Below, piece by piece: positions 5,817 to 39,557 of a stretch of DNA of 64,000 nt. Numbering within the stretch: the first letter of the stretch is position 1; each line of letters begins with the position of its first letter. The notes beneath the pieces were generated by a model. The model saw only the letters and a program-made list of their open reading frames with translations, ran no database searches and was not told where the DNA came from. This DNA is from Verrucomicrobiota bacterium (GTDB lineage Bacteria; Verrucomicrobiota; Verrucomicrobiia; Opitutales; Opitutaceae). The stretch is from positions 6,198 through 70,197 of the forward strand of contig JANNHA010000071.1 of NCBI GenBank assembly GCA_031404135.1. Reading direction: 5' to 3'. A program made the position numbers and the translations under genes.

Positions 5817-7379
5817 ATGAAAGCCCTGTTTTTTCTCGTCGTCGTGTTGACCGGATTATTGTGCGCGGGAGCGGAGTCCAATCCCTACGAAAGTCCGGGC
5901 ACTTTGCAGTCGCACGGCCGCATCGATGAGCTGATCTTTTCCCGTCTCAAGCAACTCGACGTTCTCCCTGCGCAAAATTGTTCGGACTCAGCCTTCGTGC
6001 GGCGTGTCTTTCTCGACGTGATCGGAACGCTCCCGACCGCTGCCGAGGCCAAAACTTTCCTCACCGACAAAAACCCCGACAAACGCCGGGCCCTGATTGA
6101 CGACCTGCTCACGCGTGACGAGTTTGCCGATTTTTGGGCGATGAAATGGAGCGACCTGCTCCGGGTGAAAGCCGAGTACCCGATCAATCTCTGGCCCAAC
6201 GCCGCCCAAGCATATCATCACTGGATCGAGACCTCGCTTCACGCCAATAAACCATTCGACCAGTTCGCTCGTGAACTCCTCACCTCGAACGGCAGCAATT
6301 TCCGCAACGGCCCAGCCAATTTCTACCGCGCACTGCAAAGTCGCGACGCCCAGTCAATCGCGCGCACGGTCGCGCTGACCTTCATGGGCGTTCGCGCCGA
6401 AAAGTGGCCCGCCGAAAAACAAGCCGGGCTCGCCGCCTTCTTCACCCAGATCGGCTACAAAACCACGGCTGAGTGGAAAGAGGAAATTGTCTTCTACGAT
6501 CCCGCCAAGACGCCGCCGACCGGATTGTCCGCTGCCACCTTTCCCGATGGCACGCCCGCCATACTCACGGCCGACCGGGATCCACGCGAAATCTTCGCCG
6601 ACTGGCTCATCGATCCGAAAAACCCCTGGTTCACGCGCGCGGTTGCCAACCGCGTTTGGTTCTGGCTACTAGGTCGTGGCATCGTGCATGAGCCCGACGA
6701 TTTTCGCCCCGATAATCCACCCGCCAGCCTTGAGCTCCTCGCTTATCTCGAAGAGCAGCTGGTCGCCGCCCGCTACGATTTGAAGGCGCTCTTTCGCCTG
6801 ATCCTCAACTCGCAAACCTACCAGCTCTCCTGCCTGCCGCGCAGCGAAAAGCCCGAGGCCGCCGCCAATTTCGCATTCTATCCGCTGCGCCGCCTTGAGG
6901 CCGAAGTGCTCATCGACGCGCTTAACCAAATCACCGGTTCGACCGAGAAATACACGAGTGCGATTCCCGAACCCTTTACTTATGTGCCCGAGGGCGTGCG
7001 CTCGATTGCGTTGCCCGATGGCAGCATCACCAGCTCATTTTTGGAGATGTTTGGTCGTCCGGCGCGCGACACCGGTCAGGAATTGGAGCGCAACAACCGC
7101 ACCACGCCCACGCAGCGCCTGCACCTGCTCAACTCCAGTCAGGTACGCCGCAAGCTCGAGCAGGGCCCCAACCTGCAGGTCATCTGGCGCGAAAACCAAA
7201 AACGCCCGGCCGAGCTCATCGACACGCTTTACTTAACCATTCTCTCCCGCCATCCGACTCCCGAAGAGCGCAAGACAGTGCAAGCCTACGTCAAGACCTC
7301 CGCGCTGCCCTCGCAACAAGCCGGACTCGATCTTGCCTGGGCGCTCGTTAACAGCGCCGAATTTCTTCATCGCCACTAA
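5817..7379 (+). CDS. DUF1549/DUF1553 domain protein (PSD1-like), secreted
   Basis: Motifs FADFWAMKWSDLLRV (DUF1549) and NRVWFWLLGRGIVHEPDDF (DUF1553). The ATG at 5817 (MKALFFLVVVLTGLLCAGA) gives a signal peptide. The ORF is open from GTG 5637. Confidence 0.8.
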   Translation: MKALFFLVVVLTGLLCAGAESNPYESPGTLQSHGRIDELIFSRLKQLDVLPAQNCSDSAFVRRVFLDVIGTLPTAAEAKTFLTDKNPDKRRALIDDLLTRDEFADFWAMKWSDLLRVKAEYPINLWPNAAQAYHHWIETSLHANKPFDQFARELLTSNGSNFRNGPANFYRALQSRDAQSIARTVALTFMGVRAEKWPAEKQAGLAAFFTQIGYKTTAEWKEEIVFYDPAKTPPTGLSAATFPDGTPAILTADRDPREIFADWLIDPKNPWFTRAVANRVWFWLLGRGIVHEPDDFRPDNPPASLELLAYLEEQLVAARYDLKALFRLILNSQTYQLSCLPRSEKPEAAANFAFYPLRRLEAEVLIDALNQITGSTEKYTSAIPEPFTYVPEGVRSIALPDGSITSSFLEMFGRPARDTGQELERNNRTTPTQRLHLLNSSQVRRKLEQGPNLQVIWRENQKRPAELIDTLYLTILSRHPTPEERKTVQAYVKTSALPSQQAGLDLAWALVNSAEFLHRH

Positions 7380-36023: not shown

Positions 36024-36237
36024 GCGTGCGGCCGCTTGGCCAGGTAAGCCTTCCCGGGGTGGAGCAGCTTGACGCAAGATGCTTTCCGGGTGCCACGAAG
36101 GTCGAACCACCCTGTTTGTCATCCCGAGCGCTACGCGAGGGATCCACTTGGAATCGGTAAACCAGCACGTGCGACCTTACCCACTAAGCATGGGCAAAAC
36201 CTCAAACATTCGGGGGTGACTCCTTTTTCATTCTTAA

Positions 36238-36906
36238 TCAGGGAATGGGAATTAGATTGGCCAGTTGTATGTCGAGCTTTTTGAGTCCCGTCAGTATACG
36301 TGACCTAACGGTATTATATATGTCTTTGGGATTTGCAGCGAAGGTAATCTTGTTTCGTGACATGTGAGCAACATTTCCACGCATACCCCCAAATTCGTTC
36401 ATTGCTAAATTCCATTCATCATCGAGATCCTTATTTAATCGAATCGACAAAGGAACCAATAGCCACTTCAGGTTTTCCTCTTTGATGCCATTATTATTAC
36501 TTACAACTTTCAGATACTCCTGTAATGCCATATTTATCCGAGTTTCGACACCGACTTCATTGCACGGTTTCTTCAAATTCTCGGGTCTCTTCCCAAGTTC
36601 GGACCACTCACTAGCACAAATTGCATATAATGAAAACACAACCCTGCCGACAGACTGTTTTTTAGTGTATGCTTCAACTGAAGCTTTAGCGAGCTCTTGG
36701 CAAACCGTTTCAAGGTAATGCTCTATTTCCGCGTGGACTAGAACGATAAACCCGAGAGTCCTGTCCTCCCATTGCGGGTCAGATATGCCCGCAAATGGAT
36801 CATCTAAGTCTAAGGGCAATAAGTGCTTACGCAGAACAACGATTCTTCGCAGGAGTGAATAATATTGAGCGGAAACACTCATAGGTATTTCACTTCCCAA
36901 CCACAA
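36238..36906 (-). CDS. HEPN-domain protein (putative RNase effector)
   Basis: 222 aa in an AT-rich stretch. RGNVAH (Rx4H) about 40 residues from the C terminus. Overlaps the end of the DUF262 gene (alternative start MSVSAQ at 36882). Confidence 0.6.
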   Translation of the reverse strand: MWLGSEIPMSVSAQYYSLLRRIVVLRKHLLPLDLDDPFAGISDPQWEDRTLGFIVLVHAEIEHYLETVCQELAKASVEAYTKKQSVGRVVFSLYAICASEWSELGKRPENLKKPCNEVGVETRINMALQEYLKVVSNNNGIKEENLKWLLVPLSIRLNKDLDDEWNLAMNEFGGMRGNVAHMSRNKITFAANPKDIYNTVRSRILTGLKKLDIQLANLIPIP

Positions 36907-38113
36907 TTGGAGTAATATTCACACCAACGACCTTACTCAATGACGCTGCCCATGCGTGGAATCGATATCTAGTATTTTCCAGACTTTTCGTAGTGCTCTC
37001 AATAGACTCCATGAATCTCGTATCGTTAGTGCAAAGATCTTTATAGGCAGTCACCACAATTTCGGGTGTATCTGTCCACGCTTTATTAACAACTTGATTA
37101 TCAATATACGCAAGTAATACATCAAAGATCGCTCGATTGAAACGTTGCTCAAATTTTTCTCCGGTCCACTTTCCGTAATTATATTCGCTGTCCGAATCAG
37201 CAAAGGCTTTCCGGATCATTTCATCATTTCGGTCAAGCCGGCTAATTAATTCCAAGCAACGAGGTGCGTATGAAGCCCAATTGGCGTTAAGCTCTTTACA
37301 TGTTGAGTCGAGAAACAATTTCATGTTACCGATGTATCGATTCAGAAACAAATTAAATGCTATGTGCCTGATAACGAGCTCAACATCTCTCATTCTGAAA
37401 TCAGGTTTTGTTGAGTGAAGAATTCGTTTTATAGCTTTACTTGCCGTCGAATTTTCATCTGCAAAATCCACGAATGGTCCCGGATGAAGCGCCTGCCTTA
37501 GCTCCTGTGGCGAAAGTGGTTTGCTCCCCATATTCAGACGAATAAATACGTGAAACAATAGTGCCTCGTCCTTCCAATTCTTAATAATCACAGTCCTTAT
37601 TGGCTGGTTATCAAAAGCAGCGATCACGTCTGTGCAGGTCAGATCTTCACGCAGATCACTATAAGTCCTTCCATTTAAATCCTTCCTGATATCTAGGTTC
37701 CTCAAACTGAATACTGGAAAATCGGACGCTCCGTTATTTGATGTAAATTGCAGCAAGCATAGGAGTCTTTGCTTACCATCTAGCACGATGTACTTTCCAC
37801 GAGCATCCATACGCTCCGCCAAAACAATTTGGGGTACCGGTAAACCCAAAATCAATGATTCAATGAATCTACTTTTTCTGTCTAATTCCCACGCATCGCG
37901 TCGCTGAAATTTCGGGTTAAGTTCGATATTTCCCTTACGTAGTTGAGACAGAACGGTCTCAGTGGTCCAATCGGCACCGCCAACAGTGATGCTAGAAAAA
38001 ACTACGTTTCCCGCCAGAGTTATATCGGACTCTTCTTCAGATGTGCCTGTGATTTCTGAGAACTGTTGAGGATCATTCATTGAATGAATTATTAATGGTG
38101 GCTTTTGCGGCAA
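36890..38113 (-). CDS. DUF262 (ParB/Srx-like nuclease/NTPase fold) protein without a recognisable DUF1524/HNH half
   Basis: LNPKFQRRDAWELDRKSRFIESLILGLPVPQIVL and YIVLDGKQRLLCL (FQR / DGQQR motifs). TTG start at 38113 (alternative ATG at 38080). AT-rich. Confidence 0.8.
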   Translation of the reverse strand: MPQKPPLIIHSMNDPQQFSEITGTSEEESDITLAGNVVFSSITVGGADWTTETVLSQLRKGNIELNPKFQRRDAWELDRKSRFIESLILGLPVPQIVLAERMDARGKYIVLDGKQRLLCLLQFTSNNGASDFPVFSLRNLDIRKDLNGRTYSDLREDLTCTDVIAAFDNQPIRTVIIKNWKDEALLFHVFIRLNMGSKPLSPQELRQALHPGPFVDFADENSTASKAIKRILHSTKPDFRMRDVELVIRHIAFNLFLNRYIGNMKLFLDSTCKELNANWASYAPRCLELISRLDRNDEMIRKAFADSDSEYNYGKWTGEKFEQRFNRAIFDVLLAYIDNQVVNKAWTDTPEIVVTAYKDLCTNDTRFMESIESTTKSLENTRYRFHAWAASLSKVVGVNITPIVVGK

Positions 38114-38350
38114 ACAAAGGGGTGTTCATCTGGCTGGGTGCCAAAATGCAATAGGTGGCATCAAGTTGGAAGGCAAATTGTTCGGCCACGCTGAGGTGGA
38201 CTCCGTGACCAGTACCAGGGGATCGAGAGAGTTAGTTATGAGGTTCAGGTATGATTGGGAAGATAAAATAATTTTTAGGGAGGGGTGCAGGGAAGGGAGC
38301 TAGCTCTTTCCCCGCTCCTCCCGTCGCCGTTAGGCGGCATGTTTGGGGCG

Positions 38351-38395
38351 ATCCAAAAGGGCCAAACTTTGCACTTTGCACAAAGACCCTGCGGA
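38351..38395 (+). repeat. Direct repeat flanking hicBA, left copy
   Basis: ATCCAAAAGGGCCAAACTTTGCACTTTGCACAAAGACCCTGCGGA. Compare 39072-39128. Confidence 0.6.
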
Positions 38396-38606: not shown

Positions 38607-38825
38607 ATGAAGGAAATTATTTTTGAGGTACGCGAGGACGAGGCCGATGGCGGTTTTACCGCTGCGGCGCTCGGTCATGACATTTTTACTGAGGGCGACA
38701 CGATAGCGGAACTACGCGCCAATGTGCGCGGGGCGGTGCAGTGTCACTTTGGCGATGGCGTGCCCGGACCGTTGCCGCAAATGATCCGGCTGCATTTTGT
38801 GCGTGATGAAGTACTAGCGACATGA
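38607..38825 (+). CDS. hicB: HicB-like antitoxin (RNase-H-fold-only type)
   Basis: 72 aa. MKEIIFEVREDEADGGFTAAALGHDIFTEGDTIAELRANV. 4-nt overlap with hicA. Confidence 0.7.
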   Translation: MKEIIFEVREDEADGGFTAAALGHDIFTEGDTIAELRANVRGAVQCHFGDGVPGPLPQMIRLHFVRDEVLAT

Positions 38826-39064
38826 AAATCCCGCGCGACTTGAGCGGCTCCGATCTGGCGAAGGCGTTGCGTACGCTCGATTATGAGCGCGTGAGGCAGG
38901 ACGGCTCACATATCCGACTGACAACCCAGCGCGGCGGCCAGCATCACATCACGGTGCCCAATCACAATCCGATCAAGCTGGGCACGCTGACGGGCATCCT
39001 CAAAGCCATTGCCGCGCACCACAAGCTGAGCATTCAGGAGTTGGTGCAAACCCTCGGCCTGTAA
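38822..39064 (+). CDS. hicA: HicA-family mRNA interferase toxin
   Basis: 80 aa. LSGSDLAKALRTLDYERVRQDGSHIRLT...HHITVPNHNPIKLGTLTGILK (YcfA/HicA pattern with catalytic GSH). Confidence 0.8.
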   Translation: MKIPRDLSGSDLAKALRTLDYERVRQDGSHIRLTTQRGGQHHITVPNHNPIKLGTLTGILKAIAAHHKLSIQELVQTLGL

Positions 39065-39071
39065 CGAAACC

Positions 39072-39128
39072 AATCAAAAGGGGTTAAGTTTTGCACTTTG
39101 CAGAAAGGCCGATCCAGGCTTCTGCGGA
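39072..39128 (+). repeat. Direct repeat flanking hicBA, right copy
   Basis: AATCAAAAGGGGTTAAGTTTTGCACTTTGCAGAAAGGCC...CTGCGGA. Shares the TTTGCACTTTGCA core with 38351-38395. Confidence 0.6.
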
Positions 39129-39383
39129 CAGTGGTTGTGTTTTGGAGCTTGGGGTCGGTGGTTCCACTCAAACCCACCCGGACCCAACCTCATTGGATTG
39201 CCGCAAGGCTAGAACGAGGAAGCGCACGCAAGCGTGGTTCGGGGCGGACACGAACGTTTGGAGGTTATCCCGGTAACGGGATGCTCGTGCAAAACGAGGA
39301 CACGTTGAACCAACCTTCTTACGGCCATGGTTTCAATATGCGATCAACCGCTCCCCTTGATCGGGGAAAGATCATTAACTGGA

Positions 39384-39460
39384 GAGCCGGATGCGGGAAA
39401 TCCGCCAGTCCGGTTCGGAGGGAGGGGTGGAGCAAATCAATGCTCCGTCCCTACCCCTAT
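39384..39460 (+). mobile_element. Group II intron 3' terminus (domain V plus domain VI with bulged branch-point A), ORF-less remnant
   Basis: 39384-39416 GAGCCGGAUGCGGGAAAUCCGCCAGUCCGGUUC matches the domain V consensus: AGC triad, 9-bp lower stem with G-U pairs, a 2-nt CA bulge and a GAAA-type loop. 39419-39460 folds as domain VI with an unpaired A at 39453, 7 nt before ...CUAU. Confidence 0.7.
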
Positions 39461-39557
39461 CAAGCCGGATCGGGATCGCCGGCAAGCAGGCTTCTGCGAA
39501 AATCTGCGCTGATGACGCGTCGCCCGCCTTTTCCTGATTGAACAATCCCTGCCCGTT

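Follow-up and report, generated by a model that had tools for sequence, protein, structure and literature searches.

Does the pair of co-oriented genes in an AT-rich stretch of a Verrucomicrobiota contig represent a new kind of defence system, or a variant of one that is already known? The pair lies in a window of 64,000 nucleotides (contig JANNHA010000071.1, assembly GCA_031404135.1), by which we mean the whole stretch of DNA that was analysed, and a sequence-only reading had proposed it as a candidate uncharacterised defence system composed of a DUF262 protein (hereafter A) and a stand-alone HEPN protein (hereafter B). The maximal open reading frames are as described in that reading (36890-38113, 407 aa, and 36238-36906, 222 aa, both on the minus strand and both starting with TTG). 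Database gene calls and the N-terminal consensus of the families favour ATG starts at 38080 for A (396 aa) and at 36882 for B (214 aa), and the previously described overlap at 36890-36906 is gone with these starts; a gap of 7 nt separates the TGA of A (36892-36890) from the ATG of B. The 396-aa database gene call is 100% identical to A. The islet itself is indeed AT-richer than its surroundings, with a GC content of 0.40-0.46 over 36200-38000 compared with 0.57-0.64 in the flanks. The two genes are as follows.

36890..38080, minus strand: gene A, a ParB-DUF262 protein with a helical C-terminal domain (ParBDB/NsnA-C-like), 396 aa, stop included; the maximal ORF reaches TTG 38113.
36238..36882, minus strand: gene B, a stand-alone RiboL-PSP-type HEPN protein, 214 aa, stop included; the maximal ORF reaches TTG 36906.

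The assignment of A to the DUF262/ParB-like proteins held up in the profile search (PF03235, 8.5e-23); the segments LNPKFQRRDAW, GLPVPQIVL and VLDGKQRL are present, and the protein has a ParB/Srx fold. Motifs I-III, following the DUF262 motif definition of PMC12065111, show no variation across 37 A-family members. In SspE and GmrSD, DUF262 works as an NTPase sensor (PMC12065111). Foldseek placed KorB, ParB, Noc, PadC, SspE and sulfiredoxin among the top matches of A (probability up to 0.96; AF2 model with pLDDT 86), while a PDB sequence-profile search with the A family returned zero matches. The parts of A are arranged along the gene as listed here.

37481..37993, minus strand: DUF262 NTPase domain of ParB/Srx fold (approximately residues 30-200 of A; Pfam match at residues 58-210 of the 407-aa ORF).
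37889..37906, minus strand: DUF262 motif I, QRRDAW (Q59-W64), invariant in the 37 family members.
37766..37780, minus strand: DUF262 motif II, DGKQR (D101-R105), the predicted NTP-binding centre, invariant in the 37 family members.
36893..37480, minus strand: all-helical C-terminal domain of A (approximately residues 201-396), NsnA-C/ParBDB-like; the NsnA model aligns up to its position 383 of 385, and the AF2 secondary structure shows helices only.

The C-terminal half of A had been described as free of a DUF1524 nuclease, and this was borne out by the searches: no PF07510-type Pfam match was obtained at E <= 1, and that half has neither a beta-beta-alpha element nor any His that is invariant. 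A cryptic GmrSD was ruled out by the missing DUF1524.

B was found to be HEPN at the family level, as had been proposed from its Rx4H motif. Window B scores 19.5 bits against PF18735 (HEPN_RiboL-PSP), which is under the Pfam gathering threshold of 28.4, and the same model matches 61 of the 62 syntenic B homologues (best 5.5e-16). A lone Rx4H is expected about 0.2 times by chance in a protein of this size (rough estimate), and a chance occurrence had been named as the main weakness of the original call. This worry can be set aside, because R-G-x-x-[A/V]-H is kept at the same aligned position in 62/62 homologues. A second conserved element, an N-terminal helix, putatively forms the other half of the HEPN active site.

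36364..36381, minus strand: HEPN catalytic motif RGNVAH (R168-H173 of the 214-aa B); R168, G169 and H173 are the same in all 62 sequences.
36709..36735, minus strand: N-terminal helix H50-A51-E52-x-E54...E58 of B; A51, E52, E54 and E58 never vary, and H50 almost never does.

The AF2 model of B, for which the alignment was built from database proteins, is all-alpha with eight helices (pLDDT 87.5, pTM 0.86), and the catalytic motif ends helix H155-173. Foldseek detected no significant match of B in the PDB, where the HEPN toxins 7ae8, 7ae2 and 7ae6 were retrieved at E 1-2.5 and TM 0.3-0.44, and none in BFVD, where the top entry was an MAE-28990-like HEPN protein (E 0.29, probability 0.75). Overall, the best HEPN-type matches had E values of 0.3-2.5 and TM scores of 0.3-0.45, and a structure match was not used as proof that B is HEPN. 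A PDB sequence-profile search with the B family gave zero matches.

These domain identities bear on which of the two proteins would act on a target. DUF262 proteins are best known from GmrSD and BrxU (type IV enzymes) and from SspE, the last of which is among the top structural matches of A; A also gives a weak PADLOC REase_II match, and the 2013 HEPN survey terms the ParB partners 'nucleases' (PMC3710099). Taken in this direction, the pair would be a type IV-restriction-like system in which A, as a ParB-like nuclease/NTPase, cuts or nicks modified phage DNA and B is an accessory or regulatory HEPN protein. However, cleavage in the characterised DUF262 enzymes sits in DUF1524, which is absent here, and B keeps its invariant Rx4H and acidic helix in 62 sequences, which implies that B is catalytically active. 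We therefore regard a restriction-like role of A as quite improbable.

We then examined whether the two genes belong together. The sequence-only reading had left synteny as a point to be checked, and the A-B operon was found in approximately 75 metagenome, genome, plasmid and viral loci. The metagenome scan for loci was performed with the A alignment as query; a scan of genome contigs with the single A sequence gave one weak, irrelevant match only. Where the available DNA is long enough, A is trailed in practically all cases by an ORF of ~185-236 aa, at a spacing of about -60 to +30 nt, and all of these ORFs are homologous to window B. Gene order and spacing are as in the window at ~60 metagenome loci and 13 viral loci, the pair being present at 13 of the 14 viral-contig loci, and plasmid copies also exist. 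The loci come from diverse metagenomes, two verrucomicrobial genomes, actinobacterial and rhizobial plasmids, and prophage-type contigs. A and B co-evolve (mirror-tree Pearson 0.78; 0 of 2,000 Mantel permutations reach that value). A third conserved gene was not found: among the 106 flanking ORFs at 27 flanked loci, each family is seen at most 3 times. Nor is B a rare or hypervariable partner: a word-indexed search with B alone gave 5 relatives, and this notion was rejected after synteny extraction and an exhaustive profile search had raised the number to ~1,800 clusters (1,813 clusters at 50% identity).

The strict pairing is informative for the interpretation of the PADLOC results. The best match of A is NsnA of the Menshen system (2e-62, model positions 39-383 of 385), followed by a partial match to PD-T4-2_A (5.9e-31, model positions 48-262 of 363), and both models match 37/37 A-family members. 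The full-length NsnA match could be read as a degenerate Menshen system (NsnABC) that has lost NsnB and NsnC and is followed by an unrelated gene. However, an NsnB-type ABC ATPase (AAA_15 + DUF3696) is absent between and beside the two genes, and no ATPase recurs in the 27 flanked loci. Nor is there an NsnC, which would combine an inPIN domain at its N terminus with a C-terminal nuclease domain; the downstream gene encodes a single-domain all-alpha HEPN protein. Moreover, B accompanies A at more than 70 loci and co-evolves with it, and HEPN effectors are never mentioned in the Menshen survey. On compact DUF262+HEPN pairs from E. coli plasmids, too, NsnA outscores PD-T4-2_A, and the NsnA match thus reflects a broad model rather than Menshen membership. 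The missing NsnB and NsnC, together with the conservation of B with A, effectively refute a degenerate Menshen system, which we consider extremely improbable.

For B, no PADLOC match was obtained in the window, including none to PD-T4-2_B or NsnC. The PD-T4-2_B model matches 4 of the 62 B proteins at <= 0.01 (best 5.8e-5), and thus fails to recognise window B and 58 of the 62 partners examined. The PD-T4-2_A, PD-T4-2_B and NsnA models give the same picture for other clear DUF262+HEPN pairs. Because A scores best as NsnA, such loci are likely skipped or tagged as partial Menshen, and a large and widespread DUF262 + HEPN clade therefore falls into a blind spot of automated annotation, with its loci liable to be overlooked or mislabelled.

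The A+B pair is horizontally acquired. A counterpart in a second genome, L093 (GCA_023269495.1), is 93.6% identical over exactly window positions 38191-36234 (blastn), whereas the flanks of the two copies are unrelated and the genomic context differs; the GC content of the cassette is ~0.41 in both hosts. The borders of the cassette are thereby mapped to the base, and they enclose two genes only plus ~110 bp upstream.

36234..38191, minus strand: whole transferable cassette, 1,958 bp, consisting of the ~110-bp upstream region, gene A and gene B; AT-rich islet.
38081..38191, minus strand: conserved upstream non-coding region, a putative promoter or 5' UTR, within the stretch that both genomes share.

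A promoter role of this upstream region is one that we infer: a consensus scan of 38081..38191 detected no sigma-70 site above chance, and the promoter/terminator scan gave nothing above shuffle expectation. A search at both cassette ends found no TSD or TIR of at least 8 nt, and there is no tRNA within the window that could serve as an integration site. The cassette offers a minimal clonable unit in which the control of a HEPN RNase by a ParB-like NTPase could be studied.

As for the surroundings of the cassette, the sequence-only reading had noted hicBA and a group II intron relic as neighbours. The relic was recovered as an RF00029 match at 39382-39460. As for hicBA, hicA is present (PF07927), and the supposed hicB is a 72-aa ORF with no Pfam match. 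Otherwise the cassette is surrounded by nuo, an oxidoreductase gene and a DUF1186/SEC-C gene. The window locus thus does not lie in a defence island, and the flanks of homologous loci, which carry sporadic defence or mobility genes only and are mostly housekeeping, lend no support to enrichment in such islands.

The setting and the mobility of the pair do raise the possibility of a toxin-antitoxin (TA) or addiction module, in which A would neutralise B, a toxin of the HEPN RNase type, and the main role would be stabilising the mobile DNA that carries it rather than phage defence. The two small, tightly coupled genes adjoin the TA gene hicA, the pair is found on plasmids and proviral contigs, and on conjugative IncX1 plasmids compact relatives come immediately after the gene for the replication initiator. 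In the PDB, the folds that match B best, if only weakly, are those of HEPN toxins from HEPN-MNT TA systems. The cassette contains no MNT ORF, the partner being a DUF262 protein. Against an addiction module, A is an NTPase of ~400 aa with invariant catalytic motifs, a much more complex protein than antitoxins usually are, and many copies of the cassette are chromosomal, amid housekeeping genes. Furthermore, the homologous architecture PD-T4-2 guards against phage T4 both natively and when transferred, and its deletion from E. coli ECOR65 restores T4 plaquing (Vassallo et al. 2022). We consider a purely stabilising role unlikely, and note that TA behaviour and abortive defence can coexist.

A defence role is the best reading of the pair. 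Taken together, the domain identities, the intact motifs, the strict order of A then B and their co-evolution, the lack of a third conserved gene, the mobility and the PD-T4-2 architecture make it likely that the two genes form a complete anti-phage cassette of the PD-T4-2 type that moves by horizontal transfer, with A as the proposed sensor and B as HEPN RNase. In the mechanism we propose, A would serve as sensor and switch, with the ParB-DUF262 NTPase fused to a helical domain of DNA-binding type. A would bind DNA and, by binding or hydrolysing NTP in its QRxxxW/DGxQR/FxxxN pocket, sense a sign of infection on the DNA of the phage, which may be modified or in replication. A may contact B directly and would then release or activate it. 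B, probably a dimer with a composite Rx4H active site, would cut RNA (tRNA, rRNA or mRNA), and this cleavage would stop translation and phage production, with abortive infection as the most likely outcome. For PD-T4-2 itself, no mechanism has been published in the literature searched.

The initial question can be answered by comparison with systems that have been described. The pair was originally held to be unnamed and uncharacterised, and this part of the proposal has to be abandoned: because DUF262 + RiboL-PSP HEPN is the architecture of PD-T4-2, the pair maps to a named system, and the combination was also listed by Anantharaman et al. (2013). In that survey, 'Ribo L-PSP-HEPN ... operon with ParB' was tabulated in Table 1 (PMC3710099), so a ParB-fold protein neighbouring this HEPN family is shared with the present pair; the entry is purely computational and has no subfamily resolution. 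The same survey lists a 'MAE_28990 HEPN in operon with ParB nuclease and methylase', whereas the window pair has no methylase. An MAE-28990-like HEPN protein is also the best viral-library fold match for B.

Compared with the better-studied DUF262 systems, the difference lies mainly in the effector. The pair shares with GmrSD and BrxU (type IV restriction) and with the PT-sensing nickase SspE an N-terminal DUF262 NTPase with QR/DGxQR motifs followed by a helical domain, but those proteins carry a DUF1524 His-Me nuclease, whereas here a HEPN RNase encoded by its own gene takes the place of the effector. With Menshen NsnA (NsnABC; Millman 2022; Li et al. 2025), A has in common the ParB-DUF262 domain and a helical ParBDB-type C-terminal domain; in contrast to Menshen, the pair has neither the NsnB ABC-ATPase nor the inPIN-nuclease NsnC, and its effector is of HEPN type.

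Closer relatives are the compact DUF262+HEPN pairs of IncX1-type E. coli and Salmonella plasmids and of a Kocuria plasmid, which have the same gene order and the same Pfam families (A, PF03235; B, PF18735 at 47-51 bits). Their A proteins are 35% identical to the window A family (hhalign probability 99.9). Their B proteins are shorter (175-180 aa), and the pairs are plasmid-borne and adjoin rep. An hhalign comparison of the B-family profile with single compact HEPN partners from the E. coli and Kocuria plasmids was not significant, and the B subfamilies are therefore linked through their shared Pfam family and the weak PD-T4-2_B matches. The window pair falls within a 'long-B' clade of ~1,500 clusters, in which RiboL-PSP HEPN proteins of ~200-235 aa are always paired with an NsnA-like DUF262 protein. 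This clade could conceivably be a sister of PD-T4-2 that differs from it in function, responding to another trigger and attacking another RNA, which we regard as a rather doubtful possibility; if true, it would provide a tractable model for how a DNA-reading ParB-type NTPase licenses a separate HEPN RNase.

The nearest named system remains PD-T4-2 of E. coli ECOR65, described as 'DUF262, HEPN' (Vassallo et al. 2022; HHpred: A, PF03235 99.7%; B, PF18735 97.8%). Both are two-gene operons of co-oriented, tightly coupled genes, with DUF262 (PF03235) first and 5' of a stand-alone RiboL-PSP HEPN (PF18735), and without DUF1524, a likeness drawn from architecture, Pfam families and PADLOC models. On the PADLOC models, window A matches PD-T4-2_A and four B-family members match PD-T4-2_B, whereas the alignment of window A is partial, NsnA scores higher and window B goes unrecognised. 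PD-T4-2 is also more compact (both ORFs in 1,540 bp, QOYX01000002:338334-339873, compared with 396 + 214 aa here), and the hosts and GC contexts differ. In ECOR65, PD-T4-2A is the protein RCO39066.1, and the B gene carries no annotation. Thus, the window pair is a divergent member of the already known DUF262 + HEPN architecture and no new kind of system.

The two genes flagged in the window form a real, intact and mobile two-gene module. The sequence-only reading had drawn both ORFs at exactly the positions of the maximal ORFs, every motif that it quoted was found, and the AT-rich islet that it described is evident (GC 0.40-0.46 at about 36200-38000 vs 0.57-0.64 in both flanks).

36890-38113, minus strand: gene A, the DUF262 (ParB-like) gene; maximal ORF, 407 aa
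36238-36906, minus strand: gene B, its HEPN partner; maximal ORF, 222 aa
34962-36023, plus strand: DUF1186 protein with a SEC-C metal-binding motif at its end (PF06685 + PF02810), just downstream of the cassette and unrelated to the A/B pair
38607-38825 and 38822-39064, plus strand: ORF pair, a presumed hicB followed by hicA

Independent database gene calls (100% and 96% identical) have lengths of 396 aa and 214 aa, and an internal ATG of gene B fits the partner-family N-terminal consensus MxxSxRY, so that the likely starts are ATG 38080 for gene A and ATG 36882 for gene B. The proposed overlap of the ORFs holds for the maximal ORFs and disappears with these starts: 7 nt separate the gene A TGA (36892-36890) from the gene B ATG. 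Despite the lack of overlap, A and B are still one operon.

The surroundings had been described as hicBA and a group II intron relic. HicA was recovered (80-aa ORF, PF07927, 4.2e-12), whereas the presumed HicB, a 72-aa ORF upstream of and overlapping hicA, had no Pfam match at 1e-3. The hicA cassette (38607-39064) is flanked by a direct repeat of 38 nt (window 38351-38388 and 39073-39110; 79% identical, ATCCAAAAGGGCCAAACTTTGCACTTTGCACAAAGACC), which may mark the borders of a further small insertion or be an operator that was duplicated. The intron relic was matched by Rfam RF00029 domain V/VI (39382-39460, plus strand, 54.8 bits, full model); since the overlapping ORF 39098-39541 had no Pfam match and no reverse-transcriptase ORF was seen, we consider it an orphan relic adjoining nuoN.

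The DUF262 identity of gene A was confirmed by its sole Pfam match, PF03235 (GmrSD_N/DUF262, 8.5e-23), and by the three DUF262 motifs, defined as QRxxxW, DGxQR and FxxxN (PMC12065111), which are invariant in an alignment of 37 relatives (Q59-W64, D101-R105 and F179/N183). The closest structural neighbours of its AlphaFold2 model (pLDDT 86) were the ParB-fold NTPases KorB, ParB, Noc and PadC, together with SspE and sulfiredoxin (probability up to 0.96). Residues ~190-385 are modelled as helices only, with no invariant histidine in the 37-relative alignment and no DUF1524 profile match, which excludes a cryptic His-Me nuclease and agrees with the earlier view that this half lacks a His-Me/HNH (DUF1524) motif. 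The counterpart of this C-terminal half is the NsnA-C/ParBDB domain, for which DNA binding was proposed by Li et al. 2025.

Taken alone, window B scored 19.5 bits against PF18735 HEPN_RiboL-PSP (gathering score 28.4) and had no PADLOC or NCBIfam match, and a word-indexed homologue search with it returned just five relatives, the word index itself causing this low count. We draw on a family set built from the ORFs that lie 3' of A homologues in 80 metagenome loci, plus the window and genome/metagenome contigs from an exact protein look-up, which comprised 62 distinct proteins (168-236 aa), all homologous to window B over their full length (25-47% identity). The Rx4H motif, as R-G-x-x-[A/V]-H, was kept in all 62 about 40 residues from the C-terminus; R168, G169, H173, A51, E52, E54 and E58 were invariant and H50, N130 and G132 nearly so, and PF18735 matched 61 of the 62 (best 5.5e-16). 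An exhaustive profile search expanded the family to 1,813 clusters (E <= 1e-3), nearly all stand-alone proteins of ~190-235 aa, some carrying the source name 'RiboL-PSP-HEPN domain-containing protein'. The AlphaFold2 model of window B (pLDDT 87.5, pTM 0.86) is all-helical; fold searches with it gave no significant match, and the weak top matches include a MAE-28990-like HEPN protein from a phage and the HEPN toxins known from HEPN-MNT systems. B is assigned to HEPN, as in the reading, on the profile matches of its family together with the two invariant motifs.

Synteny of the pair, a check which that reading had proposed, was found: wherever enough sequence is available, B almost without exception lies 3' of A at a distance of about -60 to +30 nt, and 13 of 14 IMG/VR loci have the pair, the 14th ending at a contig border. 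Pairwise distances of A and B were correlated (Pearson 0.78; none of 2,000 Mantel permutations as high), with B evolving faster (mean distance 0.67 vs 0.50 for A). In 27 loci with 106 flanking ORFs, no family was seen more than 3 times, indicating a pair without a third component, the NsnB ATPase included; in the flanks, a few genes of defence or mobility (Mrr, mads, PDC candidates, integrases) were interspersed among ordinary housekeeping genes. One copy, on ENA contig ERZ1426850, has a clear defence-island-like context, with a 1,982-aa DEAD/helicase protein, a PD-(D/E)XK protein and a DNA methylase upstream, and a 1,267-aa reverse-transcriptase-domain protein and a PIF1/UvrD-type helicase downstream.

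The cassette (window 36234-38191, minus strand) is mobile. GCA_023269495.1 carries the same pair with 95% protein identity and other neighbours, and the match to window 38191 to 36234 covers 1,958 bp at 93.6% DNA identity and stops abruptly at both ends.

GCA_023269495.1 contig JAHFTF010000061.1, 3791-5748: cassette copy, with a 2-hydroxyacid dehydrogenase gene on one side and an unrelated gene downstream

In both hosts it is a ~41% GC islet amid ~60% GC DNA. The junctions showed no target-site duplication and no terminal inverted repeat of at least 8 nt, and no tRNA was found at the cassette or in the window. Plasmids are also among the pair carriers, e.g., Rhodococcus pWB1. On this plasmid of Rhodococcus sp. 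WB1, a 228-aa B-family HEPN ORF (6126-6812; ...NNGVK...RGDTAH...) directly 3' of the DUF262 gene is unannotated and missing from the PLSDB gene table.

HEPN dimers build composite Rx4H sites. In SspE and GmrSD, a linked nuclease is turned on by the NTPase cycle of DUF262, the domain that senses a DNA feature. By analogy with these two systems and with general HEPN biology, A would act as a DNA-reading NTPase switch and B as an RNase effector, which on activation would cleave RNA and probably bring about abortive infection. The data directly show which domains are present, that their motifs are intact, that the operon is conserved and that its genes co-evolve, and all steps downstream of this are ones that we infer.

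The DUF262 + HEPN architecture is already named and validated. PD-T4-2, an anti-T4 system, is listed as 'DUF262, HEPN', with HHpred tables giving PF03235 for PD-T4-2A (99.7%) and PF18735 HEPN_RiboL-PSP for PD-T4-2B (97.8%; HEPN_MAE_28990 second) (Vassallo et al. 2022), and 'Ribo L-PSP-HEPN ... operon with ParB' was tabulated earlier (Anantharaman et al. 2013). The sequence-only reading had recognised no named, characterised system while accepting that a match to one would remove novelty, and PD-T4-2 is that match. PD-T4-2 protected E. coli K-12 from T4, and the native strain ECOR65 regained T4 plaquing without it (Vassallo et al. 2022); no mechanism was reported in the literature searched. This phage phenotype speaks against the main rival, a toxin-antitoxin or addiction module, which fits the plasmid and prophage locations and is less likely than defence as the primary function.

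With the PADLOC-DB v2 models, gene A matched NsnA of Menshen (PDLC03877) over the full length (model positions 39-383 of 385, 2e-62), and PD-T4-2_A with 5.9e-31 (PDLC04027/04028 being PD-T4-2_A/B). NsnA outscored PD-T4-2_A in all DUF262 + HEPN pairs tested (37/37 family members and the plasmid pairs), from which 'partial Menshen' mis-annotations are likely to arise, and PD-T4-2_B matched 4 of the 62 B relatives (best 5.8e-5). Such weak PD-T4-2_B recognition is not peculiar to the window clade and recurs in a compact IncX1 plasmid pair.

E. coli plasmid p573-5, NZ_CP102858.1, 3953-5593: compact pair, DUF262 of 365 aa and HEPN of 180 aa

Its DUF262 scores 3.5e-68 with NsnA vs 7.1e-42 with PD-T4-2_A, and its HEPN has no PADLOC match and reaches 50.6 bits with PF18735. 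This compact pair occurs on about 19 other E. coli/Salmonella plasmids, and in conjugative IncX1 plasmid p573-5, the one context inspected, directly follows the replication-initiator gene. The NsnA model is broad and the PD-T4-2 models are narrow. The value of the window pair is modest: it represents a large clade that present defence-finder models mostly miss or mislabel, and offers a minimal, precisely bounded cassette with which to study how a ParB NTPase is coupled to HEPN.

The pair does not qualify as Menshen, as it lacks two defining features of that system (NsnB and the inPIN-nuclease NsnC), nor as GmrSD, BrxU or SspE, as it lacks DUF1524. Like PD-T4-2, the window pair has the DUF262 gene first and the HEPN gene second, belongs to the two Pfam families concerned and has no DUF1524; its A matches PD-T4-2_A solidly, but its B is missed by the PD-T4-2_B model. 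Compared through Pfam and PADLOC models and published tables, it belongs to the PD-T4-2 kind as a divergent member with a longer B.
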